Source: Parachlamydiaceae bacterium (GTDB taxonomy: Bacteria; Chlamydiota; Chlamydiia; Chlamydiales; Parachlamydiaceae). From it: a stretch of 24,084 nucleotides of DNA. Made by a program: the position numbers and the translations under genes. The DNA lies in the NCBI GenBank assembly GCA_037143085.1, contig JBAWZJ010000001.1:1-24084 (forward strand). The letters run 5' to 3'. The notes below the pieces were generated by a model, which saw only the letters and a program-made list of their open reading frames with translations, did no database searches and was not told the DNA's origin. Of the stretch, positions 5,042 to 21,038 are shown piece after piece; position 1 is the stretch's first letter; every line of letters starts with the position of its first letter.

Positions 5042-8000
5042 TTACCCTCTCTCTTTCCCTGGTGAAAGCCGATCCATCATCACGTAAATCACTGGTGTTA
5101 TAAAAAGAGTTATCAACTGAGAAAGGAGCAATCCCCCAATAATCACTAAACCCAAAGGACGCCTAGCCCCGGCATTCGCACCGATACCTATAGCAATAGG
5201 CAAAGCTCCAAAGATCGCCGCCATCGTTGTCATCATGATTGGCCTAAAGCGGACCATACAAGCATCAATGATAGCATCTTTTGAGTTCATCTCTCGACTC
5301 CGAATGTTTTCCAACGCAAAATCGACCATCATAATCCCATTTTTTTTAACAATACCTATCAATAATACAATCCCAAGAAAAGCATACATAGATAATGGAA
5401 GTCCAAAAAGAAGTAATACTAATAATCCGCCCAGTGTTGCAGGGGGAAGGGTACTGAGTACTGTCAATGGATGAATGAAACTCTCGTAAAGCATCCCTAA
5501 AATAATATAAATCACAAAAATCGATACTAACAATAAAATCCCTGCACTAGAAATCGACTCTTGAAATGTCTCTATCGCTCCAATAGATTGAACCAAAACC
5601 CCTGGTTCAACAACTTCCTGTTTCAATTCTTCCAGTCTATCCAACCCATCGCCTAACGAAACTCCTGAAGCAAGATTGAAATCGATGGTAACGGAAGGAA
5701 ATTGGTCAATGTGATTGACACTTGAAGGACCAAGCCCTTCGCTCCACTTGGCAGCAGCACTCATCGGTACCAATTTATTTGAAATAGAGGAACGCATCCA
5801 TAGAAAATTAAAGGTGTCTGCGCTTTTTTGTTGCTCGGGAAGCAATTCTAGGATGATGTCGTATTGATCAATCGCCGTTTCAATTCTTGTTACATAGTTA
5901 TACGAGTATGAATGCATAAATGCCGTTTCGATATCCGTTGCAGTGATCCCATAAGAGGAAGCTTGGTCTCTCAAAATATTGACGTTAATCTGTGGAGAGT
6001 CAATTTCTAGGTCGCTATTCACCCCTTGAAATGTCGGATCTCCTTGCATCCGGCTGATTAATTTTTTTGCCGACGCATACACTTTGTCTGGATAGATGCT
6101 CTGCATAGCCAATTGATAGTCTCCACGGCTCTCTTGCCCTGTTGACAAATCGATCAAAGGAATATTTTTCATAAACACCTGTATTCCAGGAATTTTTCCA
6201 ATCTGTTGATTCAACTCTTTGATTACCTCTTTAATCGGCAGCCGTTTAGTTAAAGGTTTGAGTCGAATGAGATTTTGACCTTTCCTATATTCAGAGTAAG
6301 AACTGATAGCAACGGAAGATTCAACAGCTGGATTTTCTTTGATAATATTCATCACCTGTTTTTCATATTCCAGTAACTGGTAGGAAGACCCCGCCTCCTG
6401 CGTTTGGGTGTAGGCAATGAAAAATCCATCATCTTCATCGGGAAGGAAATCGATAGGGAGATAATAAAACAAAAATATCGTAGCCAAAAGACAAGCAGCA
6501 CCAACAAATAACGCCATGTATTCATGGTCTAAAACGGGAATTAACATTTTGCGGTAGCGTTCTCTCATTCTCAGATTGACCTTGTCTCCCCATTGCGTTA
6601 GCTTCCCTTTATGTTGCGTTACAGATAGAAAACGACTACATAACATAGGAGCTAAAGATAGCGACACAATACCGGAGATCACCGTAATCGCAGTCAACGT
6701 TAAAGCAAACTCCCTAAGAATTTTTCCTAATAATCCAGACATCAATAACATCGGAATGAATACAGCCACCAGAGATAAAGTCATCGAAACAATCGTAAAG
6801 CAAATCTGTCTGGCACCTTCAATAGCAGCATTGAAACGAGACATCCCCTGCTCTTGATGGCGCACAATATTTTCCAAGACAACAATGGCATCATCGATAA
6901 TAAACCCTACGGCAAGGATTAATCCTAGCAACGAAAGATTATTCAGGGTGAACCCCAAATAATTCATCACTATAAATGTACCGACAATAGAAATTGGTAA
7001 AACAACCGCTGGGATAATCGTGTCGGCGATTTTGCCAAAATAAAGAAAAATCACAACAACAACGAGGGCTATAGCCAAAATTAATGTCATATTGACATCG
7101 CTAATCGTCTCCCTAATAGATTCAGATCGATCAAAAAACGGTTTTAATGTAACAGCCGCCGGCAATTCTGTTTTTAGAGTATCTAGAAGGGCGTGAATTT
7201 GGTCGGAAATGGCAACAGTGTTAGCATTAGGCTCTTTTTGAATCGCAAGGAGGATTGTTGGCCTAGCACCGTCTGCATCGACATACTGAACATTAATTTT
7301 ATCATTTTGAAAACTCTCCACAGCTTGCCCAAGATCCTTAATCCGCAATGGTGTGCCGTTGCGGTAGGCTACAATGAGCTGATTCCACCCCTCCCCTGTC
7401 ACAATTTGACCGTCAACAGCTACATTTGGCGCTTCAATGGCTCCGTCAAGCTCCCCTGTCGGCAAGTTTGGGTTTCCCAAACTCATCGCTATAGCCAACT
7501 CTTCTAAAGTGATATCGCTAGCGACCATCCTCGCTGGATCAACTTGGATTCGAATCGCTAAAGGAGATCCAAAAACGGTCACTTGTGAGACGCCGCTAAG
7601 CATGGAGATCCGTTGTCCTATCAAATTATTTGCGTACGTATACAGATCATTCAAACGCATGGTTTCAGAAGTTAAGCTAATATAGATGATCGGCAACTCC
7701 GCCGGATTGACTTTTCGATACGTAGGGGCATAGGGAAGCTGTGGGGGTAATGTCGGCTGTGCTGTGATGATCGCAGATTGCACATCTTGAGCTGCGATCG
7801 TCATATCCTTTTCAATATCAAATTGAAGAACGATGCTGCTGCTTCCTAGAGTATTATTCGACCCCACAAATTTCACCCCGGGAATCGCCATAAACTGTTT
7901 TTCAAGAGGTAAAGCTACCGCTTGCGCCATCGTCTCCGGTGTTGCTCCCGGGTAGGAAACGCTAACATTAATCGTTGGATACGTGACGTCTGGCATATTG

Positions 8001-8104
8001 CTAATAGGTAAATTAATGTAGGCAAGTACACCTGCAAAAACAAGAGCAACAGCTAATAATGTTGTCATTATCGGTCGTAAAATAAACGGTGCTGACAAAT
8101 TCAT
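5042..8104 (-). CDS. RND efflux permease, MdtB/MdtC-like (paralog 2)
   Basis: 1020 aa; MNLSAPFILRPIMTTLL, YRKVNPA, GFIIDDAIVVLENI, GIVKKNGIMMVDFAL, RFRPIMMTT motifs. Confidence 0.96.
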   Translation of the reverse strand: MNLSAPFILRPIMTTLLAVALVFAGVLAYINLPISNMPDVTYPTINVSVSYPGATPETMAQAVALPLEKQFMAIPGVKFVGSNNTLGSSSIVLQFDIEKDMTIAAQDVQSAIITAQPTLPPQLPYAPTYRKVNPAELPIIYISLTSETMRLNDLYTYANNLIGQRISMLSGVSQVTVFGSPLAIRIQVDPARMVASDITLEELAIAMSLGNPNLPTGELDGAIEAPNVAVDGQIVTGEGWNQLIVAYRNGTPLRIKDLGQAVESFQNDKINVQYVDADGARPTILLAIQKEPNANTVAISDQIHALLDTLKTELPAAVTLKPFFDRSESIRETISDVNMTLILAIALVVVVIFLYFGKIADTIIPAVVLPISIVGTFIVMNYLGFTLNNLSLLGLILAVGFIIDDAIVVLENIVRHQEQGMSRFNAAIEGARQICFTIVSMTLSLVAVFIPMLLMSGLLGKILREFALTLTAITVISGIVSLSLAPMLCSRFLSVTQHKGKLTQWGDKVNLRMRERYRKMLIPVLDHEYMALFVGAACLLATIFLFYYLPIDFLPDEDDGFFIAYTQTQEAGSSYQLLEYEKQVMNIIKENPAVESSVAISSYSEYRKGQNLIRLKPLTKRLPIKEVIKELNQQIGKIPGIQVFMKNIPLIDLSTGQESRGDYQLAMQSIYPDKVYASAKKLISRMQGDPTFQGVNSDLEIDSPQINVNILRDQASSYGITATDIETAFMHSYSYNYVTRIETAIDQYDIILELLPEQQKSADTFNFLWMRSSISNKLVPMSAAAKWSEGLGPSSVNHIDQFPSVTIDFNLASGVSLGDGLDRLEELKQEVVEPGVLVQSIGAIETFQESISSAGILLLVSIFVIYIILGMLYESFIHPLTVLSTLPPATLGGLLVLLLFGLPLSMYAFLGIVLLIGIVKKNGIMMVDFALENIRSREMNSKDAIIDACMVRFRPIMMTTMAAIFGALPIAIGIGANAGARRPLGLVIIGGLLLSQLITLFITPVIYVMMDRLSPGKERG

Positions 8105-11100
8105 ATTTTCAAGGTTACCCTTTCGTTAATACGCTCCATAGCCAAGTAAATAATTGGCGTAACAAATAAAGTCACTAACTGAGAAAAAAGCAATCCTCCG
8201 ATAATCACCAATCCAAGTGGACTACGCGCAGAAGCATTAGCTCCCAAACCAAGTGCTATGGGCAAAACACCAAAAATTGCTGCTGCTGTCGTCATCATGA
8301 TTGGACGGAAACGAGCAGTGCACGCATCTAAAATGGCATTTTCAGGAGACATCCCTTTATGGCGAATATTGTCCAAGGCAAAGTCGACAACCATAATCCC
8401 ATTTTTCTTTACAATGCCTATCAGCAAGACTATCCCTAAGAAGGAATAAAGAGATAACGGCAAGCCAAAGATAAGTAAAGTCAAAAGTCCTCCAAATGTT
8501 GCTGGTGGCAATGTGGTCAATATTGTAATCGGGTGAATGTAACTTTCGTAGAGAATGCCCAAAATAATATAGATAGCGAAAATGGTCAATAGGAGTAAAT
8601 ATCCCGCACTTTTAATCGATTCATTAAACGTTTGAGCGGCGCCAATTGGACGCGCAGTGATGCCTGGCAAAACAACCTCTCCTGTAATTTTTTTAATTTT
8701 CTCAAGAGCTGTCTCTAAGGCCACCCCCGGCGCAAGATTAAATGAAACGACGACGGAAGGGAATTGGTTGATATGATTGACACTAGAGGCTCCTAATCCG
8801 ATATCTATGTCAATCGCTGCACTCAAAGGAACCAATTTATCCGATATTATGGAGCGGAGCCACACATTATTCAAAATATCCACCTGCCGTTGATATTCCG
8901 GATAAAGCTCCAAGATCACGTAGTATTGATCAATAGATGTTTGTATTTTCGAGATAAAATTTCCTGAAAAGCTATAGGAAAAAGCTTCTTCTATATTATT
9001 TGCCGTCAGCCCCAACGTCGATGCTTTGTCGCGTAAAATATTGATATTGACCTGAGGAGTCGTCACTTCCATATCACTATTGACTCCTTGAAAAATAGGA
9101 TCTTTCTTCATCTTCTCTATCAAATCCCCTGCCGATCGGTAAAGCTTATCTGCAGATAGTCCTTGCAAGGCAAATTGATATGCAGCCCTACTCTCTTGCC
9201 CTGTTGCCAGGTCTATCAAAGGGATGTTTTTGATAAAACCTTGCAAACCATCGATTTGTTGCATATCTTTATAAATCCCTTGTATCACCTGCTGCATCGG
9301 CTGCCTTTTATCTAAAGGTTTAAGATGAACAAGGTTTAATCCCTTCCGATATTCCGAATATGAGCTAATAGCCACTAACCTATCGACCGCCGGATTATTT
9401 CTAAGGACATGGGCTAATTTATTTTCGTTTTCCAACATACTATAAGACGATCCCCCCTCTCTCTCCTGTGTATAAATCACGAAGAAACCAAGATCTTCAT
9501 TCGGAACGAAATCGGTTGGGAGATAGGAAAGAAGCAACACAGTCGATAGTGTACACAACAGGGCGACGACGATGGCTGTCAAACGATGGTGAAGAACAGA
9601 GACGAGGGCTTTGCGATATTTTTTTTCCATCCATCCATTCAGTCGATTCGACCACTCAGAAGCCTTAGCCCCATTTTTTCGAGGCGGAATAAAACGACTG
9701 CAAAGCATTGGCGTCAATGTCAATGAAACTATTCCAGAAATCAAAGTAATTACCGTCAATGTGATAGCAAACTCCTTGAAAATTTTACCGATCAATCCTC
9801 CCATAAAAAGCATGGGAATAAATACAGCAATGAGGGAAAGGCTCATCGATACGATAGTAAAACAAATCTGACGAGACCCTTCCATTGACGCTTGAAAAGG
9901 AGTCTCTCCCGACTCTATACGTCTAATGATATTTTCTAACACCACAACGGCGTCATCAATAATGAATCCTACAGCCAAGGTTAACGCCAAAACAGAAAGG
10001 CTATCTAAAGTAAAATTAAGCACAAACATCACTATAAATGTGGCTATCACCGATGCCGGAAGTGCTAAAGAAGGAATAATCGTATCCCTGACTTTCCCCA
10101 AAAAAAAGAAAATCACCAATATGACAAGAAGTAACGAGACAACCAAAGTCTTCATTGCATCATCAATGGCTTCTCGAACAGCAATCGAGCGGTCAAATAC
10201 AATGTGAAGATCAATCGCCAGCGGAATCTCTGTTTTTATCGAATCTAAAAGCTTATAAATGTTATCAGCTATAGCAACAGTATTCGCATCCGGCGCCCGT
10301 TGTATCGCAAGAGTAACCGTAGGTTCGACCTCATCCCCTTCAATATATTGGGAATAAATCTTATTGTTTGCGAAATTGTCTATGGCACGCCCAAGATCGC
10401 GAATACGGACAGGTGAACCATTTCGGTAAGTCACAATCATTTGTTCGTAATCTGCACCTGTCATCAGTTGTCCATCGACAGACACTATAGGAGCCGCAAC
10501 ATCTCCATCAAGCTGCCCTGTAGCAATAAAGGCGTTCTGTAGTTTGATCATGTCAGCAAGCTCATTCAATGTGACATTATGGGTAACAAGTTTCCCCGGA
10601 TCAACTTGGACCCTAACAGCCAACAAAGAGCCAAATGTTGACACTTGAGAGACCCCTTCAATCATAGAGATCCGCTGCCCTATCACGGTATTACCATAAG
10701 TATAAAGGTCTGCACGCGACATGGTCTTTGAAGTCAGAGAAATGTAAATGATGGGCATTTCTGCAGGGTTAACTTTCCTGTATGTCGGACCAAAGGGAAG
10801 ATTCGGAGGCAAATAGGGAATCGCACTTGTAATTGCTTCTTGAACATCTTGAGCCGCTGTTGTCATGTCTTTGTCGATTTCAAACTGCAAAATAATGCTT
10901 GTATTTCCAAGAGTGCTATTTGAGCTTACAAGACGTAACCCTGGAATCCCCATAAACTGTTTTTCTAGAGGTAGAGCAACAGAATTGGCCATCGTTTGCG
11001 GTAAGGCTCCGGGAAACGAAGTTTTAACATTAATTGTCGGATAAGCAACATTTGGCATGCTGCTGATAGGCAAAGCATTATAAGCTAATATCCCAGCAAC

Positions 11101-11166
11101 AACCAATGCCAACATAGCCAAGGTGGTCATCACCGGACGTCGAATAAATGGAGCAGAGAGATTCAT
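8101..11166 (-). CDS. RND efflux permease, MdtB/MdtC-like (paralog 1)
   Basis: 1021 aa with the same RND motifs (IIDDAVVVLENI, GIVKKNG, RFRPIMMTT); 4-nt overlap with the downstream paralog. Confidence 0.96.
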   Translation of the reverse strand: MNLSAPFIRRPVMTTLAMLALVVAGILAYNALPISSMPNVAYPTINVKTSFPGALPQTMANSVALPLEKQFMGIPGLRLVSSNSTLGNTSIILQFEIDKDMTTAAQDVQEAITSAIPYLPPNLPFGPTYRKVNPAEMPIIYISLTSKTMSRADLYTYGNTVIGQRISMIEGVSQVSTFGSLLAVRVQVDPGKLVTHNVTLNELADMIKLQNAFIATGQLDGDVAAPIVSVDGQLMTGADYEQMIVTYRNGSPVRIRDLGRAIDNFANNKIYSQYIEGDEVEPTVTLAIQRAPDANTVAIADNIYKLLDSIKTEIPLAIDLHIVFDRSIAVREAIDDAMKTLVVSLLLVILVIFFFLGKVRDTIIPSLALPASVIATFIVMFVLNFTLDSLSVLALTLAVGFIIDDAVVVLENIIRRIESGETPFQASMEGSRQICFTIVSMSLSLIAVFIPMLFMGGLIGKIFKEFAITLTVITLISGIVSLTLTPMLCSRFIPPRKNGAKASEWSNRLNGWMEKKYRKALVSVLHHRLTAIVVALLCTLSTVLLLSYLPTDFVPNEDLGFFVIYTQEREGGSSYSMLENENKLAHVLRNNPAVDRLVAISSYSEYRKGLNLVHLKPLDKRQPMQQVIQGIYKDMQQIDGLQGFIKNIPLIDLATGQESRAAYQFALQGLSADKLYRSAGDLIEKMKKDPIFQGVNSDMEVTTPQVNINILRDKASTLGLTANNIEEAFSYSFSGNFISKIQTSIDQYYVILELYPEYQRQVDILNNVWLRSIISDKLVPLSAAIDIDIGLGASSVNHINQFPSVVVSFNLAPGVALETALEKIKKITGEVVLPGITARPIGAAQTFNESIKSAGYLLLLTIFAIYIILGILYESYIHPITILTTLPPATFGGLLTLLIFGLPLSLYSFLGIVLLIGIVKKNGIMVVDFALDNIRHKGMSPENAILDACTARFRPIMMTTAAAIFGVLPIALGLGANASARSPLGLVIIGGLLFSQLVTLFVTPIIYLAMERINERVTLKI

Positions 11167-12254
11167 TATTTTGAAGCCGGTGCGGTGATAACGATCATCC
11201 CCGGAGCAATGTTGATTTGACCATCAACGACAACGCTGTCGCCAACCTTCAAGTCTGGGGAAGCCACTGCTATATACGCTTCGGTACGAGTTAAAACATC
11301 AACATTATGCGCTGAAACTTTCTGTTCTCCATCCATTTTATAAAGGTACGCACCGTTTTTACCAATTAAAACGGCTCCGGGAGGTACGACAAGAGCCATT
11401 GGAGCGGTGGATTGCAACACCTTAACCTTAATAAATTCTCCGGGCCATAACACCCACTCCGAATTCGAACACCTTCCTTTTAAAAGGATTGTCCCTGTGT
11501 CCTGGTTCACCTGATTATCGATGAAATAAGTCTTTCCTTCGAACGGTATTTTAGGTTTTTCCGGCAAAACGGCAATAAAAGGCCATATTCCTTCATTTCC
11601 CTGTTTCAGACGAATGGCTTCAAACTGCTGCTGAGATAGCGAAAACATGATATCTATTGGATCAAACGGACGGATCACCGTGATCGCAGTTGGATCGTAT
11701 GCTGTGACCACATTTCCTGGATAAATATTGAAGTAGCTGATTTTTCCGGAAACGGGAGCAAGGACCTGGCAGAAATCGAGATTAATTTGAGCTGCAACAA
11801 TAGCAGCAATATCCAATTCGACTTGCGCCTGGGCAGCTTTGGCATTTCCTTCATACTGTTCCCATGTCAACTGCGAGATAAAATCTTCTTCGACAACGGT
11901 TTTATATCTCTTCACTGTGAGTTCAGCAACTTCCAATAAAGCCTGGTCATGGAGCAGCTGAGCTTTTGCTTCATCTAAAATAGCTTGATAAGGGCGCGGA
12001 TCGATCATATAAAGGAGATCGCCTTCCTTTACGATTGCCCCTTGCTCGACATAAGCTTTCAACAACTTTCCTTGCACTTGCGGACTGATAGCAACCTCTA
12101 CCGGAGGAATGACTTGTCCAATCGTGTCGATATAAACAGGAACGTCATACTGTTGCACAAGAGCTGTAGTCACATTTGGAGGATCATTTTTTGGTTTTGG
12201 CGATCCATGACATCCAGTCACCAACAATACAATTAAAACTAATACGAAATTCAT
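11166..12254 (-). CDS. RND periplasmic adaptor (MdtA-like membrane fusion lipoprotein)
   Basis: Lipobox LVTGC, lipoyl-like motifs QVQGKLLKAYVEQGAIVKEGDLLYMIDPRPY and APVSGKI, IDNQVNQDTGTILLKG, LWPGEF. Confidence 0.95.
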   Translation of the reverse strand: MNFVLVLIVLLVTGCHGSPKPKNDPPNVTTALVQQYDVPVYIDTIGQVIPPVEVAISPQVQGKLLKAYVEQGAIVKEGDLLYMIDPRPYQAILDEAKAQLLHDQALLEVAELTVKRYKTVVEEDFISQLTWEQYEGNAKAAQAQVELDIAAIVAAQINLDFCQVLAPVSGKISYFNIYPGNVVTAYDPTAITVIRPFDPIDIMFSLSQQQFEAIRLKQGNEGIWPFIAVLPEKPKIPFEGKTYFIDNQVNQDTGTILLKGRCSNSEWVLWPGEFIKVKVLQSTAPMALVVPPGAVLIGKNGAYLYKMDGEQKVSAHNVDVLTRTEAYIAVASPDLKVGDSVVVDGQINIAPGMIVITAPASK

Positions 12255-12257
12255 AAG

Positions 12258-13829
12258 TCAGCTCTCAGCTTTATCTTTAAAAGGAATATTAAATAATTCT
12301 TTAGGAGGCGTTTCTCTCCAGTGCCCTTTGGTCTCATCCAAAACACCAACGGAAAATGCTAGGTTAGCCAGTGAGGCAGCCCACTGGGTCCTTGTCACAA
12401 TAAGCTGAGCGCGGGCATTGCTCAGTGTTGTCAAGGCATTGAGAACATCAAGAATAGATGCCGTCCCCACCTTGTACTGAGATAAATAGCCTCTAAAGGC
12501 GCGCTCGCTAAACTCTAAATTAGCTATACTTGATGGCAATGCCGCAACAGCGGAGGTAAATGCATAGTAATTGGTCACAACTTCGCTAGCAACCGTCGAT
12601 AGCTGAACATCTAGATTAGCCAATGCCTCCTGCACCTGATTGCGCATCTGCTTGAGCTGGTTTTTGTAATAAAACCCTTGAAAGATTGGGACGTTTAAGT
12701 TGATGGAGATGTTGTTGTTATGCCCATCGGCAATGGGATTATGGATAAAATGCAATCGACTCCATTGCGCGTTGGTCGAGACTGTGGGCATTCCTGCAGA
12801 AAAAGAAATATCCCTCATCGCCTCTTGTTGTTTTACAACAGCTATCGCTGCACCGATATCCGGTCGTTTATGCTTGGCTACCTCTAAAAGATGATCCAAG
12901 TCGCCTGATATTTCAATTACAGGAAGTTGATCCGGTAGGCTTTCAACAGATAATTTTGTTTCTGGAGCTAACCCCACAGCAATTACTAGCTCCCCAAGAG
13001 ATGTTTTTTCTTCCCCTTGAGCGTAAATAAGGGTTGTCCGTGCTTGTTCAACAGCAGCTTGAGCTTGCAACACATCTGTCATTGTTGCCAAACCGGCATT
13101 TCGCATCGTCAAGGCTGCCTTCAGAGACATTTCAGCATCTTTCAGATTTTGTTCATCAGCGGCGACAAGAGCTTTATTTCCGTTATAACTTGTATAATAG
13201 TCCAACACATTCATCATTACCTGCTGCAATGTGAAATTGTGTTGCCAATTGGCTTGATAGAGTGTTTCCAATGCCAATGTTGCTTGTGCATCTCTACCGC
13301 CAAAATCGAACATCAACCAGCTGGCTGTCACCTCATTGAAATTTGTATCTATTTGACTGTTCCCCGATATAGCAGCAGTAGTCGGTCCCCTTGCTGTCGT
13401 TCCGGTATTTGAAAGAGCTGTAGCTTGAGTGGCGCTCGTCACTGTACTTCCGGAGCTAGCTCCAATGGTATCACTCTCTGCCGTTAACGTTGAAGTGAAG
13501 GCTATAGCCGGATAATATTCGCTTAAGGAAGTCCGGTAAGCATAGGCAGAAGCCCTGGCTGCATACCAACTTGAGCGTGTGGAAGGATTATTGAATAAAG
13601 CAATATCGAGCAATTTAGCGACAGATATTGTTGAGGAGAGATCTTCTGCAGTAAAGGGGCGTACAACAGTCTGCTTGGGGTAAGTGATCGACTTTCCTTT
13701 CCACTCAGATCCAGGAGAACTTGGAGCGTCACCACTAAAAGAAGGATCATAGGTAAACTCGTTACACCCCACCAACAAAGACAGCAAGAAGGCACTAAAA
13801 ATGGTGTATACCGAAAGCGATTGAAGCAT
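12258..13829 (-). CDS. TolC-family outer membrane efflux lipoprotein
   Basis: IALFNNPS, WLMFDFGG, RPDI, LNVPIFQG, YKVGTASILDVLNA motifs; lipobox LVGC 22 aa after ATG 13829. The ORF track extends to 13925, so the start is uncertain. Confidence 0.92.
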   Translation of the reverse strand: MLQSLSVYTIFSAFLLSLLVGCNEFTYDPSFSGDAPSSPGSEWKGKSITYPKQTVVRPFTAEDLSSTISVAKLLDIALFNNPSTRSSWYAARASAYAYRTSLSEYYPAIAFTSTLTAESDTIGASSGSTVTSATQATALSNTGTTARGPTTAAISGNSQIDTNFNEVTASWLMFDFGGRDAQATLALETLYQANWQHNFTLQQVMMNVLDYYTSYNGNKALVAADEQNLKDAEMSLKAALTMRNAGLATMTDVLQAQAAVEQARTTLIYAQGEEKTSLGELVIAVGLAPETKLSVESLPDQLPVIEISGDLDHLLEVAKHKRPDIGAAIAVVKQQEAMRDISFSAGMPTVSTNAQWSRLHFIHNPIADGHNNNISINLNVPIFQGFYYKNQLKQMRNQVQEALANLDVQLSTVASEVVTNYYAFTSAVAALPSSIANLEFSERAFRGYLSQYKVGTASILDVLNALTTLSNARAQLIVTRTQWAASLANLAFSVGVLDETKGHWRETPPKELFNIPFKDKAES

Positions 13830-14048
13830 TGAGTTTAGACTGACACAAAGTTTTTTACGATCGCATGATCGTAAATTTAACGCAGTCGAAATTTCAATTT
13901 TTGAACCTCGCTTGGTATAACTCATGAAATTTGTAATCCAGGTTAAAATATAACCGATCCTGGCATTGTAAAAAAATATTTACTAATATATCAAGAAATA
14001 TACTATTCATAGCTCAAAATGAGAATTTTGGCTAACGTCAAAGGTCTA

Positions 14049-16307
14049 CTAATCGAAATGGCACTCCGTATTCCCTGTGGTCGAACTGAAGGAACATCTT
14101 TGGTACCCGAATTTCGTCTTAAACAGAAAAAACTTATTGTTTTTTTGCATCTCCGCCCAGTATCGGTCACAGACATAATGTGTCGTTCGCAGCTTGATCA
14201 GTTTCTCATAGCCGTCACGAAAATAAAACAACACCTTTTCTGCCCCTTTTCTGTTGAGGAGATATGCTGAACAAGTTGTACATTCCTGATAAGATAGCAA
14301 AAGGAGGTCGTCGTATTCTTTTATTTCGTGATATTTGCTTGAATTCAGCAAACAAACTTCATAATCGTACTGTCTATCGAAAAACAGTTTCAACCTCTTT
14401 AAATTACCTTCTATATCAGCTGTAAATGTAACGTCATCTTCTAAAATTAGACACGTCTGATGGATCCCTTTCAAAAAGTCTTCGACCATATTCCCATGAT
14501 TTTTTGTACAACTCGCATGGGCATCAAAAGATTTATCACCAGTGATAGACTCTCTTTTAACCTTATAATGACAAATTCGATTTAACGGAGCCCTCACCCG
14601 ACAAAGTTCAGAGAGTATCTCCATGTAACGGTCAACTCTTTCCTCCAAATTCAAAATATAAACAACCCCTATGGATTCCCAAGCTGGATCATATTCAAAT
14701 TTGGAATGCTTCAGGTCTTTAAAATATAAAGGATGACGCCAAATTTTATTGCTATAGGGTAAGTTGTTGTGTGCATGGTGATAGTTTCCATAAACGATAA
14801 CCAATTCATTATCTTTCGGTTCTCTAAGAGGGTCTGTCGTCGCAATAATTTGCCGACCTGTCTCCCTTAGTTTATCTATCAAACCATTGCTATGTTCAAT
14901 AATCGATTCATCAACAAGAAGGCAATCGAAATATTGATATAGCTGACACGCCTCTTCTATCTTATTTTGAGAAACTAATTCGTTAATCGATGAGAGGAGT
15001 TGTTCTCTATTTAAGACCCTGAAATCATCAACGCTTATACCATCATCAGAATTATTTAGAGCTGTTGCTAAAGGAGAGTAAGACAACACAGAGAAAAGCG
15101 TTATTAACATGAAGAAAAACATAGCAAATCGATCTGAGATCATATATCGAAACCTTTTAATAGTGATACGGAACAAAAGTAAAGGTAACTGCCAGAGACT
15201 GGCGAGATTAAATTCATTCGCCAGTGTCGTCGGATAGGTAAAAAACTGCAAAAGCAATGAACTGGAAGGATACAGTCGACGATGCGCGCACCAAATCCTT
15301 TTAAAATGCCATAAAATCACACTTTTTGGTTCTATAGTCATGTATTTTTCCTTTGTCACAACTGCATATTCGAAATGTTCAAATTGCGAAAATGGAATCT
15401 TTTGCAAATCTTCTAAAACTGATGCAGGAATGTGAATATCACATTCTTTTTGTAGAAACTCAAGACTTTTGAAAAGGCGCAAGCTAACCTCCCGCTTTTT
15501 TGCCTCCTCTAACAGGGAAGGCCAAAGGATCTGATCTCCTGCTTTTTTCACGATCATATGCGCATCGACAATCCAGCGCATTGGATGCAAAAGATTCCAC
15601 CGATATCCATGCATACATGTGTGGAACAAATGATCGGTATGTGAAAGGGTCAATGTCGGTTGGGACCTAAACATCAAAGGAACAGCCCGCTGCCAAAACA
15701 CCCCATCATCACAATATTCAGGAAAAAGACGCCAGTGCAAATCGAGTTCATACCCTTTGGGATCGACAAATGTACAAGCGTGTGAGGACTGCTTATAATT
15801 TTTCTTCAAAGGCATTGTTTTAACAACATGTGCATGAGAATGAGCTTTAATCTGCCATCCGTTTTCCAGCAACAAATCTATAGCTTCATCAACACGGTCA
15901 AGAGGGATCAAAACATCACCATCAACCATGGCACGAGTATAGGGATCAGGATAATACACATAACTTAGTGCCACCCCTTTTAGCAATATTGTAGGAATAT
16001 TTTTTGCATGAAGAACTCCTAAAACACGCTCTACAGAGTGGAATAACATTTGGTTGCAGAATAAATTCCTTTTATAAATCCCTTTGAGTTTTTGCATATC
16101 AGGATCGTCCGCAGAAGCGCGCTGTAACGTATAGTAAAGCATCGGCAAAAGACGAAAAACAGAATCATCGATACTCTCTAAATTAGATTCCTTTTTCCAT
16201 TCACCCCAGGCAGCAGCAACGTTTGGAGACTCAGACAAACAGATTTTTATCAGTTCCAACTGTTTCTGAGTGGGTAGGCATCCGCCGATGTTTTCTGTGA
16301 TATGCAT
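14049..16307 (-). CDS. Nucleotidyltransferase (NTP_transf_5-like) fused via a hydrophobic segment to a GT25-like glycosyltransferase domain
   Basis: N-half ILLKGVAL..R-M-D-DVLI, ELDLHWRL, HTCMHG..RWIVD. C-half VYILNLEERVDR, SCTKNH, LILEDDVTF, AYLLNRKGAEK. Confidence 0.85.
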   Translation of the reverse strand: MHITENIGGCLPTQKQLELIKICLSESPNVAAAWGEWKKESNLESIDDSVFRLLPMLYYTLQRASADDPDMQKLKGIYKRNLFCNQMLFHSVERVLGVLHAKNIPTILLKGVALSYVYYPDPYTRAMVDGDVLIPLDRVDEAIDLLLENGWQIKAHSHAHVVKTMPLKKNYKQSSHACTFVDPKGYELDLHWRLFPEYCDDGVFWQRAVPLMFRSQPTLTLSHTDHLFHTCMHGYRWNLLHPMRWIVDAHMIVKKAGDQILWPSLLEEAKKREVSLRLFKSLEFLQKECDIHIPASVLEDLQKIPFSQFEHFEYAVVTKEKYMTIEPKSVILWHFKRIWCAHRRLYPSSSLLLQFFTYPTTLANEFNLASLWQLPLLLFRITIKRFRYMISDRFAMFFFMLITLFSVLSYSPLATALNNSDDGISVDDFRVLNREQLLSSINELVSQNKIEEACQLYQYFDCLLVDESIIEHSNGLIDKLRETGRQIIATTDPLREPKDNELVIVYGNYHHAHNNLPYSNKIWRHPLYFKDLKHSKFEYDPAWESIGVVYILNLEERVDRYMEILSELCRVRAPLNRICHYKVKRESITGDKSFDAHASCTKNHGNMVEDFLKGIHQTCLILEDDVTFTADIEGNLKRLKLFFDRQYDYEVCLLNSSKYHEIKEYDDLLLLSYQECTTCSAYLLNRKGAEKVLFYFRDGYEKLIKLRTTHYVCDRYWAEMQKNNKFFLFKTKFGYQRCSFSSTTGNTECHFD

Positions 16308-16308
16308 T

Positions 16309-16995
16309 TTATACTTTTCGCCTGCGATCTAACATTGCTTTAACAACATGTAAATACTCATACCGTTGATGTTTTAACTGTATCCCCATGTTGTTACCAT
16401 GAATGCGACGTCGAGCAAGCACATCTTTAATCAACAGACTTTTGCACCCTTTATCTTTAGCCCTGCCATACCAATCAAGAAATTCTCCAATTTCAATATG
16501 GGTTGGGAAATTTCCAGCGTGCAAGAGAGCCTCTTTCCGGATCATTAAGGTGGAAGCACAATAACCTGCCATCACTTGTCCATCCCCTTTTATTCGTTTT
16601 TTACGCTCCTCATCCAGTTCAGAACTTATGAATTGTTCTATCATAGTAAAAACCATCGAAACATCAGGATATAGCAACAAAGTTTCCAATTGCTTTTCAA
16701 GCTTTAAAGGATGCCATAGATCGTCTCCGTCAAGGAACGTCACCACATCACCACGAGCGAGGGCAATTCCTGCATTTCGTGCAGCCCCTAACCTCTGGTT
16801 CGTTTGATAGTGATAGATTAATTTATCGCCGTAAGATCTAGCAATATTTCCTGTATTATCAGTAGAGCCGTCATCAACAACGATCAATTCGAAATTTTTC
16901 CATGTTTGCGCAAGCACGCTTTCAATCGTATCGGCTAAATATGCCTGGCTATTGTAAGCATTAATAATCACGCCCACTAAACTGTCATTTTTCAT
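16309..16995 (-). CDS. GT2 (GT-A fold) glycosyltransferase
   Basis: VIINAYN, IVVDDGSTD, ARNAGI, FLDGDD, RRRIH motifs. Confidence 0.95.
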   Translation of the reverse strand: MKNDSLVGVIINAYNSQAYLADTIESVLAQTWKNFELIVVDDGSTDNTGNIARSYGDKLIYHYQTNQRLGAARNAGIALARGDVVTFLDGDDLWHPLKLEKQLETLLLYPDVSMVFTMIEQFISSELDEERKKRIKGDGQVMAGYCASTLMIRKEALLHAGNFPTHIEIGEFLDWYGRAKDKGCKSLLIKDVLARRRIHGNNMGIQLKHQRYEYLHVVKAMLDRRRKV

Positions 16996-17692
16996 GCATT
17001 AGCCCTTCTCGTTGCCTTACTATCGATTTTCTAATTATATGCAAAAGATCACGATGCAAGGGAACAACGTTAGCCGATTCATTAGCATTATGTATGCGTT
17101 TGTAAAACAAAATATCGGGCATGTGCCCTACCGGAATTTTCATATCTTTGGCAGTAAAAAACCAAGCCGAATCGTCACCTCCGCTCCGATACTGTTCGTC
17201 AAAGAATCCCACCTTATTAAACACACTCCTACGTCCAAGCAATGTGCCTAGCAAATAACCAGCATGGTCTCCTTCCAGCCTCTCCGGGTTAAGCCAGCTT
17301 GGACAAGACATTCCTGATTGAACAAATAACTTTTGCCTACATAATACGTAATCGATATTTTGATTCATTTCGAGATAAAAGACTTGTTTCGATGTTTTAT
17401 CCGCAGTCCAGATATCATCCTGATCAAGAAAAGTGATAAACTCCCCTTTTGCGTTTCTCAACCCTACATTTCTCGCAACGGCCACACCTCTATTCTTTTG
17501 CACAATCAGTGTAACCTTATCCTTAAACTTAGATACAATATCAAGACTTGTATCCGTTGATCCATCGTCTATTAAAAGGATTTCCATTGGGTTATAATCT
17601 TGTGCAAACACACTCTGAAGAGTTTCTTCTAGATAAGCCGCTCCATTATAAATAGGTATAATAACACTGACAAGCGGTCTATTTAGCATCAT
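16985..17692 (-). CDS. GT2 (GT-A fold) glycosyltransferase
   Basis: VSVIIPIYNG, IDDGSTD, ARNVGL, FLDQDD, KRIH. GGAG RBS before tandem ATGs at 17692/17689. Confidence 0.95.
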   Translation of the reverse strand: MMLNRPLVSVIIPIYNGAAYLEETLQSVFAQDYNPMEILLIDDGSTDTSLDIVSKFKDKVTLIVQKNRGVAVARNVGLRNAKGEFITFLDQDDIWTADKTSKQVFYLEMNQNIDYVLCRQKLFVQSGMSCPSWLNPERLEGDHAGYLLGTLLGRRSVFNKVGFFDEQYRSGGDDSAWFFTAKDMKIPVGHMPDILFYKRIHNANESANVVPLHRDLLHIIRKSIVRQREGLMHEK

Positions 17693-18410
17693 CAAACTCC
17701 GAAAGAGGTACAAGATTTAAGGCTTTACCCTGATTCATCAATTGACGGCGATTGATGGATCGCTTCAAGGCTGAAAAAAATGTGAGATCGTAATGGTTAT
17801 TCTCTCTAGTCATATTTGAAGAATGTTGTTGATAGAGGAGATTGATTTCTTTCATAATCGCAATTTTAATTCCAGACTCACGAACGCGGAAAAACCAATC
17901 AAGATCCTCAGCAAATCGTAGCGATTCGTCAAAAAGACCCACTTTATCAAAAACTTCTTTGTGAACTAATAGAGCTCCCAAATTGACATTTAAAAGTCCG
18001 TTCTCTTCGCCGTGATGAATAGGCATATTTTTTGCCCCTTTTAGCCTGATATATTTTATACGACCTGTCACAATCTTAAGCGAACTATCAGACCTCAACC
18101 TGGCCAATTGCAACGCAAGTTTATCATCCGGCCATTCGTCATCCGCATCCAGAAAAGCGATGATGTCGCCTTTTGCCTGTTTAATTCCAAAATTTCGCGC
18201 AGCAGCAGGTCCTTTGTTATTTTGTCTAAGGAAAATGATATCTTTGCCTAAAGTTTTAACTCGTTCTCCGATATTGTCGCTTGACCCATCATCAATTAAA
18301 ATAATCTCTAAAAAAGGGTAATTCTGCCTTCTTATACTTTTAAGGGCTTCTTCGATGAACTGACCTGCATTAAAATAAGGGATGATGACACTAATACTCC
18401 ATTCAGCCAT
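17679..18410 (-). CDS. GT2 (GT-A fold) glycosyltransferase
   Basis: ISVIIPYFN, IDDGSSD, ARNFGI, FLDADD, EDLDW. ATG 18410 overlaps the kinase stop (translational coupling). Confidence 0.95.
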   Translation of the reverse strand: MAEWSISVIIPYFNAGQFIEEALKSIRRQNYPFLEIILIDDGSSDNIGERVKTLGKDIIFLRQNNKGPAAARNFGIKQAKGDIIAFLDADDEWPDDKLALQLARLRSDSSLKIVTGRIKYIRLKGAKNMPIHHGEENGLLNVNLGALLVHKEVFDKVGLFDESLRFAEDLDWFFRVRESGIKIAIMKEINLLYQQHSSNMTRENNHYDLTFFSALKRSINRRQLMNQGKALNLVPLSEFDDAK

Positions 18411-19479
18411 TAGAACGCTCCAAGAAATCAGCAATAAGATAAGGAATTTGCTCCACATCTGTACCTAGGTCTAGCCAAAAATTAGGGACAGATGTTGTAA
18501 GTAAGCGCATTTTATCAAAAGCTATCTTACCATCCCCCTCAAGATGCAACACCGTTGTTGGAGCAAGCGCCAACAACGATTCGGCGCTACTGGCTTGTCG
18601 AATCCTGGAATTTTTTTGGTGAGTCACACGCGGCAAAAATATAGCCTTAATTGGGAATCCTGCAGAGAGCTTCTCTGGAAAATGTTCATTCAGAAAAAAC
18701 AAAGCTTTTTCGCTAGACAAACTCTCTTTATTGCTAATTTTTTCAGATAGATGAGGCAGCATGTTTACACTATTAGGAACGAGCTTTCCAGTATTATAAA
18801 GGCTATAGACAAAAGGAATTGGTTCATTAGAAATCATCACATAATCATCACCCACATACTTCAAACCTGACCGAACACAGCTGAGGGCTGTTGTCGATTT
18901 TCCCGATCCACTTTTCCCCGTTAATAAAATTCCCCCTTTATCGAAGCCTACAGCCCCCGCGTGGACTAGCTGGAAAGGACGGAGCTTGCTCCACCAGTGA
19001 ATGATACAACGCATCGGGAAACTCATCTCCCAATAAGGCAGTATTCTCGGATGTTGCATCCAATAGATTCCGAGCCGACGACGGTTGTTGTACATGTGCA
19101 AGATAGAGTTATCAGGATTATAAACAGTTCGTATGACCTCATTGTTAAAGCCTTGAATATGCCCCCTTGGACCGTAAGCTGTCATCAGCCATGGAGGTGG
19201 AGGCATGGGAGTATCTGTAGAGTCGCAGTCCCAACAATTAATAGTTAATGAAGGGAGACAAGGAGGAAGTTCAAGATGAGAAAACGCCATGGATAGCGAT
19301 TTTAGCAGAGCTTCACCTGCAAACCTCAAACAAAGAACCTCGGATCCCAACCGGTAATAACGGCGTATATCTGCAGAGTTTGACACCGCCTTTTCGAAAG
19401 CAATTTCCACTTCCTCAAAATAGCCTTCGGGACGTCGAGTAGCTGGCAGAACAAATTCCGCTATTTGCAGGGTTTCCAT
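18403..19479 (-). CDS. HPr kinase-like serine kinase
   Basis: LVHAGAV...GILLTGKSGSGKSTTAL...YVGDDYV, the HprK-type His / Walker A / DD arrangement. GAAGGTG RBS before ATG 19479. Confidence 0.9.
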   Translation of the reverse strand: METLQIAEFVLPATRRPEGYFEEVEIAFEKAVSNSADIRRYYRLGSEVLCLRFAGEALLKSLSMAFSHLELPPCLPSLTINCWDCDSTDTPMPPPPWLMTAYGPRGHIQGFNNEVIRTVYNPDNSILHMYNNRRRLGIYWMQHPRILPYWEMSFPMRCIIHWWSKLRPFQLVHAGAVGFDKGGILLTGKSGSGKSTTALSCVRSGLKYVGDDYVMISNEPIPFVYSLYNTGKLVPNSVNMLPHLSEKISNKESLSSEKALFFLNEHFPEKLSAGFPIKAIFLPRVTHQKNSRIRQASSAESLLALAPTTVLHLEGDGKIAFDKMRLLTTSVPNFWLDLGTDVEQIPYLIADFLERSNG

Positions 19480-19487
19480 AAACACCT

Positions 19488-19928
19488 TCAAAATTTTTCT
19501 AGAGTGTTCTGAGCAAAATGAGGCCACCCCTGTTCACTGATTTCATGAATGGGGTCGAGCAATAACAGCTCTTGCATATCGTTAAAAACAGTCAATTCTG
19601 GAGGATTGTAAACCATCTCTTTTGACTCTACCATTACCTGTTCTTTCACAGGTAAAGTCTCAACCGAAATAATGAGTTGTTCTTCTAAAAGATGGTCTAA
19701 AAAAACCTTCAAAGAAGCTTTAGCGGTCTCAGAAGATATCGAGAACTGTTCGCTCATAATCGCAGTTATTTGTTCCTCATTGAATCCATTTTGGATAAGC
19801 TGCCAGAGATAAGCTCCAGAGTCATTCATTGAATAATAATTCCCGTGTTCTAGATTGATAACGACAGCTTCGCCGTCGATAACTTCGTGAATTACGTTGA
19901 GATGGCTAATGTAATATCTTGAAGACAT
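19488..19928 (-). CDS. PqqD-family RiPP recognition element with C-terminal peptide extension (146 aa)
   Basis: VIHEVIDGEAVVINLEHGNYYSMNDSGAYLWQLI...FLDHLLEEQLI is a typical RRE pattern. AAAGGA RBS before ATG 19928; the track start at 20120 is an over-extension overlapping the divergent gene. Confidence 0.9.
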   Translation of the reverse strand: MSSRYYISHLNVIHEVIDGEAVVINLEHGNYYSMNDSGAYLWQLIQNGFNEEQITAIMSEQFSISSETAKASLKVFLDHLLEEQLIISVETLPVKEQVMVESKEMVYNPPELTVFNDMQELLLLDPIHEISEQGWPHFAQNTLEKF

Positions 19929-20030
19929 AAGATGATATCCTTTAAACATAAAGAGGTTTATGACTGGAAATCTAACAAAAGAATATTTTACATGTAAAGT
20001 CGTAAAATTTTGACTGCAAAAGGAATTTCG

Positions 20031-21038
20031 ATGGTTTTTAAAAAGGAAAAAGGACGTATCTTTTATTTCTGTCCAGATTCTGCTATTCCCTCCGGGGGCA
20101 TAAAAAAGATCTATCAACATGTCGATCTACTAAACGAGCTGGGATTTTCAGCATTTGTTGTGCACAACAAACCCGGATTCCGCTGTTCCTGGTTCGATAA
20201 TACAACGCCGATAGCCTATTTGTATAAGGTTGAAAAATCCCTACTTATTCTTGGTCCAGGAAAACAGCAAAAACAACTAGACGCACTTTCTTCAGAAGAT
20301 ATTCTTGTTTATCCTGAAGTCACCCCAGAAAAAACAATACAACAGGTGATGGATTTAGGATTTTACACAGTTATTTTCAACCAAAACGCTTATTATACGT
20401 TCCTAGCCTCCTCCTCTATTTACAAAGGCGAAAATGTCTTAGGAGCAATCGTGGTCTCAGAAGACAGCAAGAAGTATCTAGAGTACACTCTACCCTCTCT
20501 CAGCACTTTCCGGATTCATATATCTATTGATTTCAACATTTTCTCTTTTCAAGTAGCGAAGAAAAAACAGATTGCCTATATGCCACGTAAATGTGAAAGC
20601 GATTCCCATCAGATTATTAGCATATTAAATGAGCGTGGTCTGTTAAAAGATTGGAAGGTCGTGCCAATTGATAATATGTCTGAAAGAGAAGTCGCCCATA
20701 TTCTTAAAGAAAGCGCTATTTTCCTCAGTTTTTCTCATGCAGAAGGGTTTGGTTTGCCTCCGGTAGAGGCTATTTCATGCGGATGTCTTGTCATCGGCTA
20801 TCACGGAGGCGGAGGGAGAGAATATTTCCAAGGAGATTCGATTTTTCCCATCGTTCAAGGAGAAATCATCGAGTATGTCAAAACTGTTGAAAAAGTTACC
20901 CTTAATTACAATCAGGAAGCGACACATTACGCTGAAGCAACAGCATTGGCGAGCATCCTGATTCAAAATATTTACTCGCTCAAAAAAGAAAAAGAGGACT
21001 TAAAAAACGCCTGGGAATCGATTTTATACCGAAAATAA
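20031..21038 (+). CDS. GT4-like (GT-B fold) glycosyltransferase, divergent from the PqqD gene
   Basis: PSGGIKKIYQHVDLLN, IAYMPRK, EGFGLPPVEAISCGCLVIGYHGGGG. AAAGGA RBS before ATG 20031. Confidence 0.92.
   Translation: MVFKKEKGRIFYFCPDSAIPSGGIKKIYQHVDLLNELGFSAFVVHNKPGFRCSWFDNTTPIAYLYKVEKSLLILGPGKQQKQLDALSSEDILVYPEVTPEKTIQQVMDLGFYTVIFNQNAYYTFLASSSIYKGENVLGAIVVSEDSKKYLEYTLPSLSTFRIHISIDFNIFSFQVAKKKQIAYMPRKCESDSHQIISILNERGLLKDWKVVPIDNMSEREVAHILKESAIFLSFSHAEGFGLPPVEAISCGCLVIGYHGGGGREYFQGDSIFPIVQGEIIEYVKTVEKVTLNYNQEATHYAEATALASILIQNIYSLKKEKEDLKNAWESILYRK

Follow-up and report, generated by a model that had tools for sequence, protein, structure and literature searches.

A PqqD-family protein of the Chlamydiota unites in one chain a RiPP recognition element (RRE; RiPP, a peptide made by the ribosome and modified after translation), a motif resembling the leader peptides that such elements bind, and a conserved distal motif predicted to dock onto the kinase encoded beside it. 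The gene of this protein of 146 amino acids (aa), here called the RRE-tail protein, lies at 19488..19928 on the minus strand of the 24,084-nt stretch of DNA from a Parachlamydiaceae bacterium that we analysed (the window; contig JBAWZJ010000001.1, positions 1 to 24,084). That the RRE carries a leader-like [FY]xxPxL motif in cis is supported by conservation, by AlphaFold models, by covariation and by the occurrence of one motif per RRE. With slightly less than even confidence, we propose that this self-loaded RRE is the docking subunit for an HprK-like kinase, in a system of kinase, NTP_transf_5 nucleotidyltransferase and family 2 glycosyltransferases (GT2) with an exported product. Computation shows that the tail is conserved, that nearly every RRE of multi-RRE proteins has a motif of its own, that RRE and kinase are fused in nature and that docking is predicted; that the protein is an adaptor rather than the acceptor, and what is finally produced, we infer.

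Architecture of the RRE-tail protein

The open reading frame (ORF) starts with an ATG at 19928, in line with the N termini of homologues, and its product matches Pfam PqqD (PF05402) over residues 20–86 (E 5.7e-16; 59 bits, against a cut-off of 23.4). The RRE domain (residues 1–89; 19662..19928, minus strand) has three strands and three helices, plus terminal strands, at an AlphaFold predicted local distance difference test score (pLDDT) of 85–96; the strands at residues 12–17, 20–25 and 30–34 and the helices at 36–46, 51–61 and 66–82 form a winged-helix fold. The best Foldseek matches in the PDB are themselves RREs, namely lasso TbiB1 (5V1V/5V1U; template modelling (TM) score by target 0.87–0.92) and 6JX3 (0.85), and a profile of the RRE matches TbiB1, PbaB1 (9X90) and LppB (9X8Z).

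Past the RRE, on the same strand, come a linker that differs in length and sequence between homologues (residues 90–106; 19611..19661), the proximal leader-like motif Y107-N-P-P-E-L-T-V-F-N-D117 (19578..19610; family consensus [FY]xxPxLxx[FY]xD), the distal motif M118–P136 (MQELLLLDPIHEISEQGWP; 19521..19577), which conservation and a predicted interface mark as the putative kinase-docking segment, and an unconserved C-terminal end that some homologues do without (residues 137–146 and the stop codon; 19488..19520). The distal motif follows the pattern DM..LLLLDPIH..GWP. A first-pass annotation of this DNA had read Y-N-P-P-E-L at residues 107–112, followed by a 34-aa tail containing Thr113, Ser131 and Thr142, and the ORF confirms it: the codons of Y107-N-P-P-E-L112 occupy 19610–19593, and DMQELLLLDPIHEISEQGWP comes after them, within the tail (residues 113–146). 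A public gene call for the same protein (P0001; window 19488–19826, minus strand), made on a 1.5-kb contig, is 113 aa long and begins at residue 34, so that database copies of the gene are N-terminally truncated.

Conservation of the tail

From this single sequence, chance cannot be dismissed as the source of the motif: a strict Y..P.L pattern appears in 2.2% of shuffles of the protein, and a loose [FYW]..P.[LVIFM] pattern in 15%. Comparison of homologous sequences settles that the motif is real. A first homologue set comprised 63 proteins (138–179 aa, save for one truncated copy of 113 aa). Among 37 homologues compared by residue, P110, D117, L121–124, D125, P126 and H128 are invariant and conservation is 90% or higher at L112, M118, I127, G134, W135 and P136, whereas residues 88–106, in the linker, are hypervariable in length and sequence. 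This is the pattern foreseen when the tail was first noticed, with YxxPxL and DM..DPIH..GWP conserved and the linker variable.

Because the first set had been recruited via words in the tail and was thereby biased (a word-index search with the RRE only gave 2 proteins), we made an exhaustive HMMER search with residues 1–92 only against 1.84 billion representatives, which is blind to the tail and gave 4645 hits at E <= 1e-3. Among the 149 best RRE relatives from this search, 110 have a tail. A type-1 tail, [FY]xxPxL..DM..DP[IVL]H..GWP, is present in 94 of the 149 and a type-2 tail, YxxPxL..DM..LLALDPPxP..W, in 16; another 20, each shorter than 120 aa, have no tail. In the tail-blind set the LLLL run is not invariant, and the core consists of P110, D117, M/L118, D125, P126, H128 and G-W-P.

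The first-pass annotation had also mentioned LLLLDPIH..GWP tails on PqqD-family proteins elsewhere, and these exist in number: 565 of the 579 genome stretches that encode LLLLDPIH[ED] belong to the RRE-tail family. The scan used one genome per species, which gives the family a minimum of 565 species genomes; they come from Chlamydiota, Chloroflexota, Acidobacteriota, delta-proteobacteria, Cyanobacteria and Verrucomicrobiota as well as Bacteroidota, Nitrospirota, Gemmatimonadota, Actinomycetota, Clostridia and others. The gene is nevertheless patchy, occurring in 2 of 24 genomes searched from the same bacterial family. No paper containing the strings LLLLDPIH, LLDPIHE or LLDPIHD was found, and the literature found on PqqD with HPr kinase and glycosyltransferase consists of work on lasso peptides and linear polyphosphorylated peptides (LPPs), with the RRE-tail arrangement undescribed.

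It is exceedingly improbable that the tail is just an ordinary C-terminal extension in which the motif arose by chance, with no relation to the RRE groove or to the neighbouring genes. The frequency of the loose pattern among shuffles is what such an explanation can draw on; it is contradicted by the tail-blind conservation and, as set out below, by the motif-per-RRE rule, the fusions and the predicted complex.

A putative built-in leader motif

The RREs of lasso and LPP pathways bind [Y/W]xxPx[L/V/I/F/A]: the aromatic and the aliphatic residue each enter a pocket of their own, and what follows the leader motif pairs as a strand with strand 3 of the RRE, as in the LppA and PbaA leaders (PMC13381572). 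The proximal [FY]xxPxL element of the RRE-tail protein agrees with this motif; the recognition sequence for the cluster's RRE that is expected of a RiPP precursor is here conserved and predicted to dock. Several lines of evidence bear on whether it acts as a leader held in cis.

First, the AlphaFold model has a pLDDT of 85 for residues 101–110 and 79 for residues 111–120, and it places a strand at 112–115, directly past P110-x-L112, at the position that the LppA and PbaA leaders take up against strand 3. An added strand at this place had been expected from the sequence.

Second, across the 92 RRE positions, mutual information with residue 107 is highest for residues 64 and 72. Residue 72 is D, E, Q or N in 15 of 27 proteins with Y or W at position 107, as against 4 of 89 with F (Fisher 1.5e-8), a covariation in the alignment that is supportive, not proven. 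Profile alignment to 9X8Z sets residue 72 opposite D70 of LppB, whose side chain hydrogen-bonds the leader Tyr in that crystal, and residue 35, one of the ten best covarying positions, falls opposite LppB N33, the residue that holds the kink at the proline of the leader in place (PMC13381572). Prediction and covariation suggest that the leader motif may occupy the groove between strand 3 and helix 3.

Third, and this is the strongest argument for a built-in leader, relatives with several RREs have one motif per RRE. In two- and three-RRE proteins, 29 of 35 RRE domains have a [FYW]xxPx[LVIFM]-like motif of their own in the next 60 residues. A strict motif with proline follows 24 of the 35 (chance, 0.067 per 60-aa window) and an extended motif, with P, A, L or F at the proline position, follows 20 (chance, 0.005); there is one distal motif only per multi-RRE protein. 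For a two-RRE protein, AlphaFold models the two motifs at a pLDDT of 86–88, each with a strand right after PxL. Because the motif recurs after nearly every RRE in these proteins, the RRE and its pseudo-leader are an evolutionary unit. The tandem relatives with two or three RREs are P0065–P0071, P0080, P0119, P0159 and a protein encoded at 8001–8810 of locus L100.

These observations also bear on another role for the motif, already considered in the first-pass annotation, that of an autoinhibitory or placeholder mimic which closes the groove, or keeps the RRE soluble, until a precursor from elsewhere displaces it. The agreement with the leader consensus [Y/W]xxPx[L/V/I/F/A] is as such a mimic would require, LppB is insoluble without its leader (PMC13381572), so that a built-in ligand could stabilise the fold, and the proximal motif has decayed in a paralogue of the protein. 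Yet a mimic appears improbable, as neither the surroundings of the cassette in 82 related loci nor a search for standalone tail-like peptides yielded a candidate precursor, retention of the motif per RRE in multi-RRE proteins points to a structural module rather than a switch, and an intramolecular ligand would be far ahead in effective concentration over a ligand in trans.

A distal motif predicted to dock onto the HprK-like kinase

The distal motif is the best-conserved part of the RRE-tail protein. When the protein is folded alone by AlphaFold, however, residues 121–146 are unstructured (pLDDT 41–54; 52–54 for the distal motif), and a motif that is conserved yet predicted to be disordered is as expected for a segment that folds on a partner.

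The candidate partner is encoded next to it. The HprK-like kinase (18403..19479, minus strand; 358 aa from the ATG at 19479) matches Pfam Hpr_kinase_C and NCBIfam HprK_rel_B/A, all below cut-off, and 40 orthologues all share its Walker A residues G191, G193, K194 and S195 and the pair D211-D212. A start at the ATG at 19479 agrees with the alignment of orthologues, where M1 is invariant, and leaves a gap of 8 nt after the RRE gene that, on sequence, suggests translational coupling; the longest ORF of the kinase opens at a GTG and shares 40 nt with the end of the RRE gene (window 19480–19527). The kinase gene adjoins or is near the RRE-tail gene in most of the 82 related loci.

The predicted complex of kinase and RRE-tail protein scores 0.84 (0.85, 0.80 and 0.84 in three runs), and the best of three controls scores 0.00. 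In calibration, 58 of 80 solved complexes attained the mark for such a score, as did 2 of 110 mismatched pairs, counts that apply only roughly to the kinase complex because it was predicted from alignments of our own (40 rows for the kinase). On the RRE-tail side, the confidently predicted interface includes residues 13–33, on one face of the sheet, and tail residues 115, 117–118, 121–123, 131 and 133–138; on the kinase side, it includes residues 85–142 of the N-terminal domain, near the conserved D84, W97, G106 and W140, as well as residue 189, next to the Walker A loop, and residues 297–329. The tail is thus predicted to meet the adjacent kinase at this interface.

Support for the link between distal motif and kinase that is independent of the predicted complex comes from natural RRE–kinase fusions, in which a single chain runs from RRE-tail through two further RREs to an HprK-like kinase (P0076, 781 aa and found on 13 contigs; P0082; P0189). 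The loci of such fusions (L103 and L104, 8001–10346) also contain a radical SAM gene, two NTP_transf_5 genes, GT2 genes and an ABC-2 (Wzm/Wzt-like) transporter, a type typical of polysaccharide export. Elsewhere in this clade, P0161 consists of a tail-less RRE fused straight to a GT2 domain, a physical tie between the RRE clade and GT2.

A second copy of the cassette shows which element lasts longest. Contig C35 (locus L090, 1–9370) of the 2.3-Mb assembly encodes an NTP_transf_5 protein, an HprK-like kinase, an RRE-like protein and a GT2 protein, followed by two oppositely oriented glycosyltransferase-like genes and then OEP, HlyD and AcrB. The RRE-like paralogue (141 aa) has diverged so far that Pfam PqqD misses it, and its proximal motif no longer has the proline; still, the paralogue keeps ILLADPIHDV..YGWP and its kinase neighbour, which makes the distal motif the most persistent element. 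Both copies are also present in a related genome; of 300 genomes from the phylum, 14 contain relatives of the paralogue.

Type-2 tails, in which DPPxP takes the place of DPIH (P0088, P0103, P0105, P0113 and others), have different neighbours at the two informative loci: at L100 and L101 the RRE adjoins genes of GT4-type glycosyltransferases, and no kinase is seen on these short contigs. This hints that the distal motif is partner-specific; two loci are a lead, not a result.

Adaptor or substrate

We picture the protein as follows. The proximal motif, Y107xxP110xL112..F115xD117, would fill the leader-binding groove of its own RRE as a lasso or LPP leader does, adding a strand beside strand 3 and leaving the distal motif, D117-M118..LLLLDPIH..GWP136, free. 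The distal motif and the outer face of the RRE sheet would then clamp the N-terminal domain and the C-terminal region of the kinase. Such a permanently occupied RRE would await no separate leader but would act as an adaptor that assembles or activates the kinase; kinase, NTP_transf_5 protein and GT2 enzymes would form a phospho-glycosylation machine, the product of which would be exported.

The first-pass annotation had instead viewed the protein as an RRE–precursor fusion that presents its own tail for modification. In its full form, this would mean that the kinase phosphorylates the RRE-tail protein itself and that the phosphate is then extended to a glycan by NTP_transf_5 and GT2 enzymes. 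In lasso and LPP clusters, HprK-like kinases add one or more phosphates to a single Ser of the precursor (PMC13381572), and the NTP_transf_5 homologue PsmN is needed for a hexose on that phosphate (PMC6993621). In the predicted complex, the tail and the sheet of the RRE would meet the kinase at sites that include residue 189 by the P-loop, and no standalone precursor is conserved in the 82 related loci. Of the fusion idea, the leader-like motif in cis, the tail predicted at the kinase and the lack of a conserved standalone precursor are supported; the tail as modified substrate is not.

The candidate acceptors fail one by one. T113, S131 and T142 are not conserved and were rejected. Position 116 is S or T in 87% of the family and was likewise discarded, being Asn in the window protein and Ala in the paralogue; lying just before a predicted helix at 118–121, it may be a helix cap, for which S, T, N and D are typical. 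S33, inside the predicted kinase interface, is S or T in 98% of the family but Gly in the kinase-linked paralogue, and it is kept in type-2 relatives, which at two loci have GT4 genes beside them and no kinase seen on the short contigs, so it too was dropped. No universal Ser/Thr acceptor was found in the tail in the family alignments. In the RRE–kinase fusions, moreover, the tail is internal, with two additional RREs and then the kinase after it; across the 82 loci the cassette shows no conserved protease, while exporters of small molecules or glycans are common there. The non-conserved acceptors, the internal tail and the missing protease favour an adaptor over a substrate. Modification at variable sites of the RRE-tail protein is possible; as a whole, self-modification strikes us as unlikely, though not lightly dismissed.

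Nor did a separate precursor come to light. A search with residues 100–146 found no standalone tail peptide; no other ORF of at least 30 aa matched a hidden Markov model of the tail in 84 loci; and all conserved clusters of small ORFs in related loci are antisense shadows inside longer genes.

A further possibility is that DPIH..GWP is itself excised and modified to a small cofactor or signal, like PqqA or MftA, and exported. Across phyla it is conserved more strictly than is usual for RiPP cores, the cassette often has an exporter, and the GT2 genes match the mycofactocin glycosyltransferase model, far below its cut-off. This origin of a small product is nonetheless very doubtful, given that neither a protease nor an oxidative enzyme is conserved in the cassette, that the tail is internal in the RRE–kinase fusions, and that the DPIH..GWP segment lies within the predicted kinase interface; the swap to DPPxP in type-2 tails, seen by GT4 genes in two loci, is better explained by partner-specific docking.

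Several points weigh against the proposal of a kinase-docking adaptor. The predicted complex is no measurement, and its kinase interface, in which residue 189 lies beside the P-loop, fits a substrate as well as an adaptor. The covariation between positions 107 and 72 is not significant once phylogeny is controlled, a comparison that has no power, with 2 supported independent pairs. The contacts of Y, P and L with their pockets are inferred from models, not seen, and docking within one chain is indistinguishable from docking between two copies. An adaptor-only role also leaves the substrate of the kinase unaccounted for.

The adaptor may belong to a broader design. Engineered enzymes in which a leader is fused to LctM or LynD are permanently leader-bound and act on leaderless substrates. 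These are laboratory constructs, whereas the RRE-tail protein would be a natural and ancient version with the addition of a kinase-docking motif. We regard as a substantial possibility, although we would sooner bet against it than on it, that the family represents such a natural leader-in-cis system: ancient and widespread RRE modules, each with a pseudo-leader and a partner-specific docking peptide, that make tailoring enzymes leader-independent. DPIH..GWP would then serve HprK-like kinases and DPPxP..W possibly GT4 enzymes, and the target would be the adaptor itself or a non-peptide or leaderless molecule destined for export.

Neighbouring genes and the conserved cassette

Downstream of the kinase on the minus strand lie three GT2 genes, at 17679..18458, 16985..17713 and 16309..16995 (Pfam Glycos_transf_2, E 1.7e-34, 3.1e-32 and 6.8e-35, respectively), and a gene at 14049..16307 (minus strand) whose product joins an NTP_transf_5 nucleotidyltransferase (Pfam, E 2.7e-46) to a weakly GT25-like C-terminal part of about 370 aa. 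The Glyco_transf_25 match of this part (E 4e-4) is below cut-off, and in the closest relative (L001) the NTP_transf_5 protein is separate and 398 aa long. On the plus strand, 20010..21038 is the divergently transcribed gene of a GT4-type glycosyltransferase with an uncertain start codon (Pfam Glycos_transf_1, E 3.3e-10). Directly downstream of the cassette, Pfam matches identify OEP, an HlyD-type fusion protein and two AcrB genes (5042..13925, minus strand), a resistance–nodulation–division (RND) system that is possibly the export route in the Parachlamydiaceae genome.

Across the 82 related loci, GT2 genes are a conserved part of the cassette; 56 of the loci have NTP_transf_5, 32 an MsbA-like ABC exporter and a minority GT4 genes. 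No MsbA-like ABC exporter was found in the window, which has the RND system instead. RND efflux as a general partner was considered and rejected, since it accompanies only the two cassettes of the Parachlamydiaceae genome and, in fragmentary form, a single further locus; other phyla do not show this link, and there the MsbA-like ABC exporter is common. Neither the window nor the set of families conserved in the 82 loci includes a lasso cyclase, a B2 peptidase or a precursor gene. Because the chemistry of HprK-like kinases and PsmN has been published for lasso and LPP clusters, the cassette most likely performs phospho-glycosylation, judging from its gene content.

Comparison with known systems

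The closest structural parallels are the B1 RREs of lasso clusters (TbiB1–TbiA, 5V1V/5V1U; TfuB1/FusB1, 6JX3; PbaB1–PbaA, 9X90), which share the fold of the RRE-tail protein (TM score by target 0.85–0.92, at 15–29% identity; profile matches of 30–63 bits), the same ligand motif [Y/W]xxPx[L/V/I] and the sheet-extending strand after it. In lasso clusters, however, the leader is a separate peptide and the complex recruits the B2 protease and the lasso cyclase, whereas the RRE-tail motif is in the same chain. The protein stays below the NCBIfam lasso cut-offs (52.7 against 80 for NF033536, lasso_PqqD_Bac; 32.3 against 70 for NF033530), and the B2 peptidase, cyclase and precursor with which lasso B1 proteins cluster accompany it neither in the window nor in the 82 loci.

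In gene content, the cassette resembles the LPP clusters, which encode an RRE (LppB), a kinase (LppK), an NTP transferase (LppN), a peptidase (LppS) and an exporter (LppD) (PMC13381572), and with which it shares the combination of RRE, HprK-like kinase and NTP_transf_5. The LPP leader comprises YxxPxV and a conserved stretch that lies off the RRE and is thought to address enzymes (Popov et al. 2026, PMC13381572). LPP clusters have a separate precursor of 35–200 aa and an SpI-type leader peptidase and are confined to Bacillota; the RRE-tail family has neither and spans many phyla, its motif is fused to the RRE, and GT2 genes are almost always added. The SpI-type peptidase and the separate precursor with YxxPxVLxHQxIxFETxxS that mark LPP clusters have no counterpart here: the window genes encode no peptidase domain, and no separate tail-like or conserved small ORF was found. 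The MsbA-like ABC exporter of LPP clusters is missing from the window.

The tailoring pair of paeninodin and pseudomycoidin, the HprK-like PsmK and the NTP transferase PsmN (PMC6993621), is the same enzyme pair as in the cassette; that pair decorates a lasso peptide, while the RRE-tail cassette comes without lasso machinery or a known acceptor. The HPr-rel-A system (NCBIfam TIGR04352 for the kinase, TIGR04353 for the PqqD-type chaperone) is likewise an orphan cassette of chaperone and kinase with no known precursor. The window proteins fall far short of its cut-offs: the chaperone model gives 17.8 where 35 is required, and the kinase model 25.6 where 200 is. The TIGR04353 model covers 74 positions, without a tail. 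By their defining features, the RRE-tail family is outside the lasso, LPP and HPr-rel-A systems.

Significance

The RRE-tail design is widespread, is not described in the literature that we found, and may replace the separate precursor peptide. Genome mining with RREs for peptide natural products assumes a separate precursor for each RRE, an assumption that this family breaks. In a 2025 survey, 21% of PF05402 proteins were longer than a discrete RRE, an excess that was left unexplained (PMC12710340); a built-in ligand would explain a sizeable share of the orphan PqqD-only proteins of more than 110 aa that the same survey flagged as unexplored.

The RRE-tail protein also offers a concrete model for how HprK-like kinases are recruited, and short docking motifs of its kind could serve as portable tags for enzyme recruitment. 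Its cassette points to an exported phospho-glycosylated product in bacteria from Chlamydiota to Cyanobacteria. If leader-in-cis recognition holds true for the family, it would amount to a RiPP-derived modification pathway that has no precursor gene.

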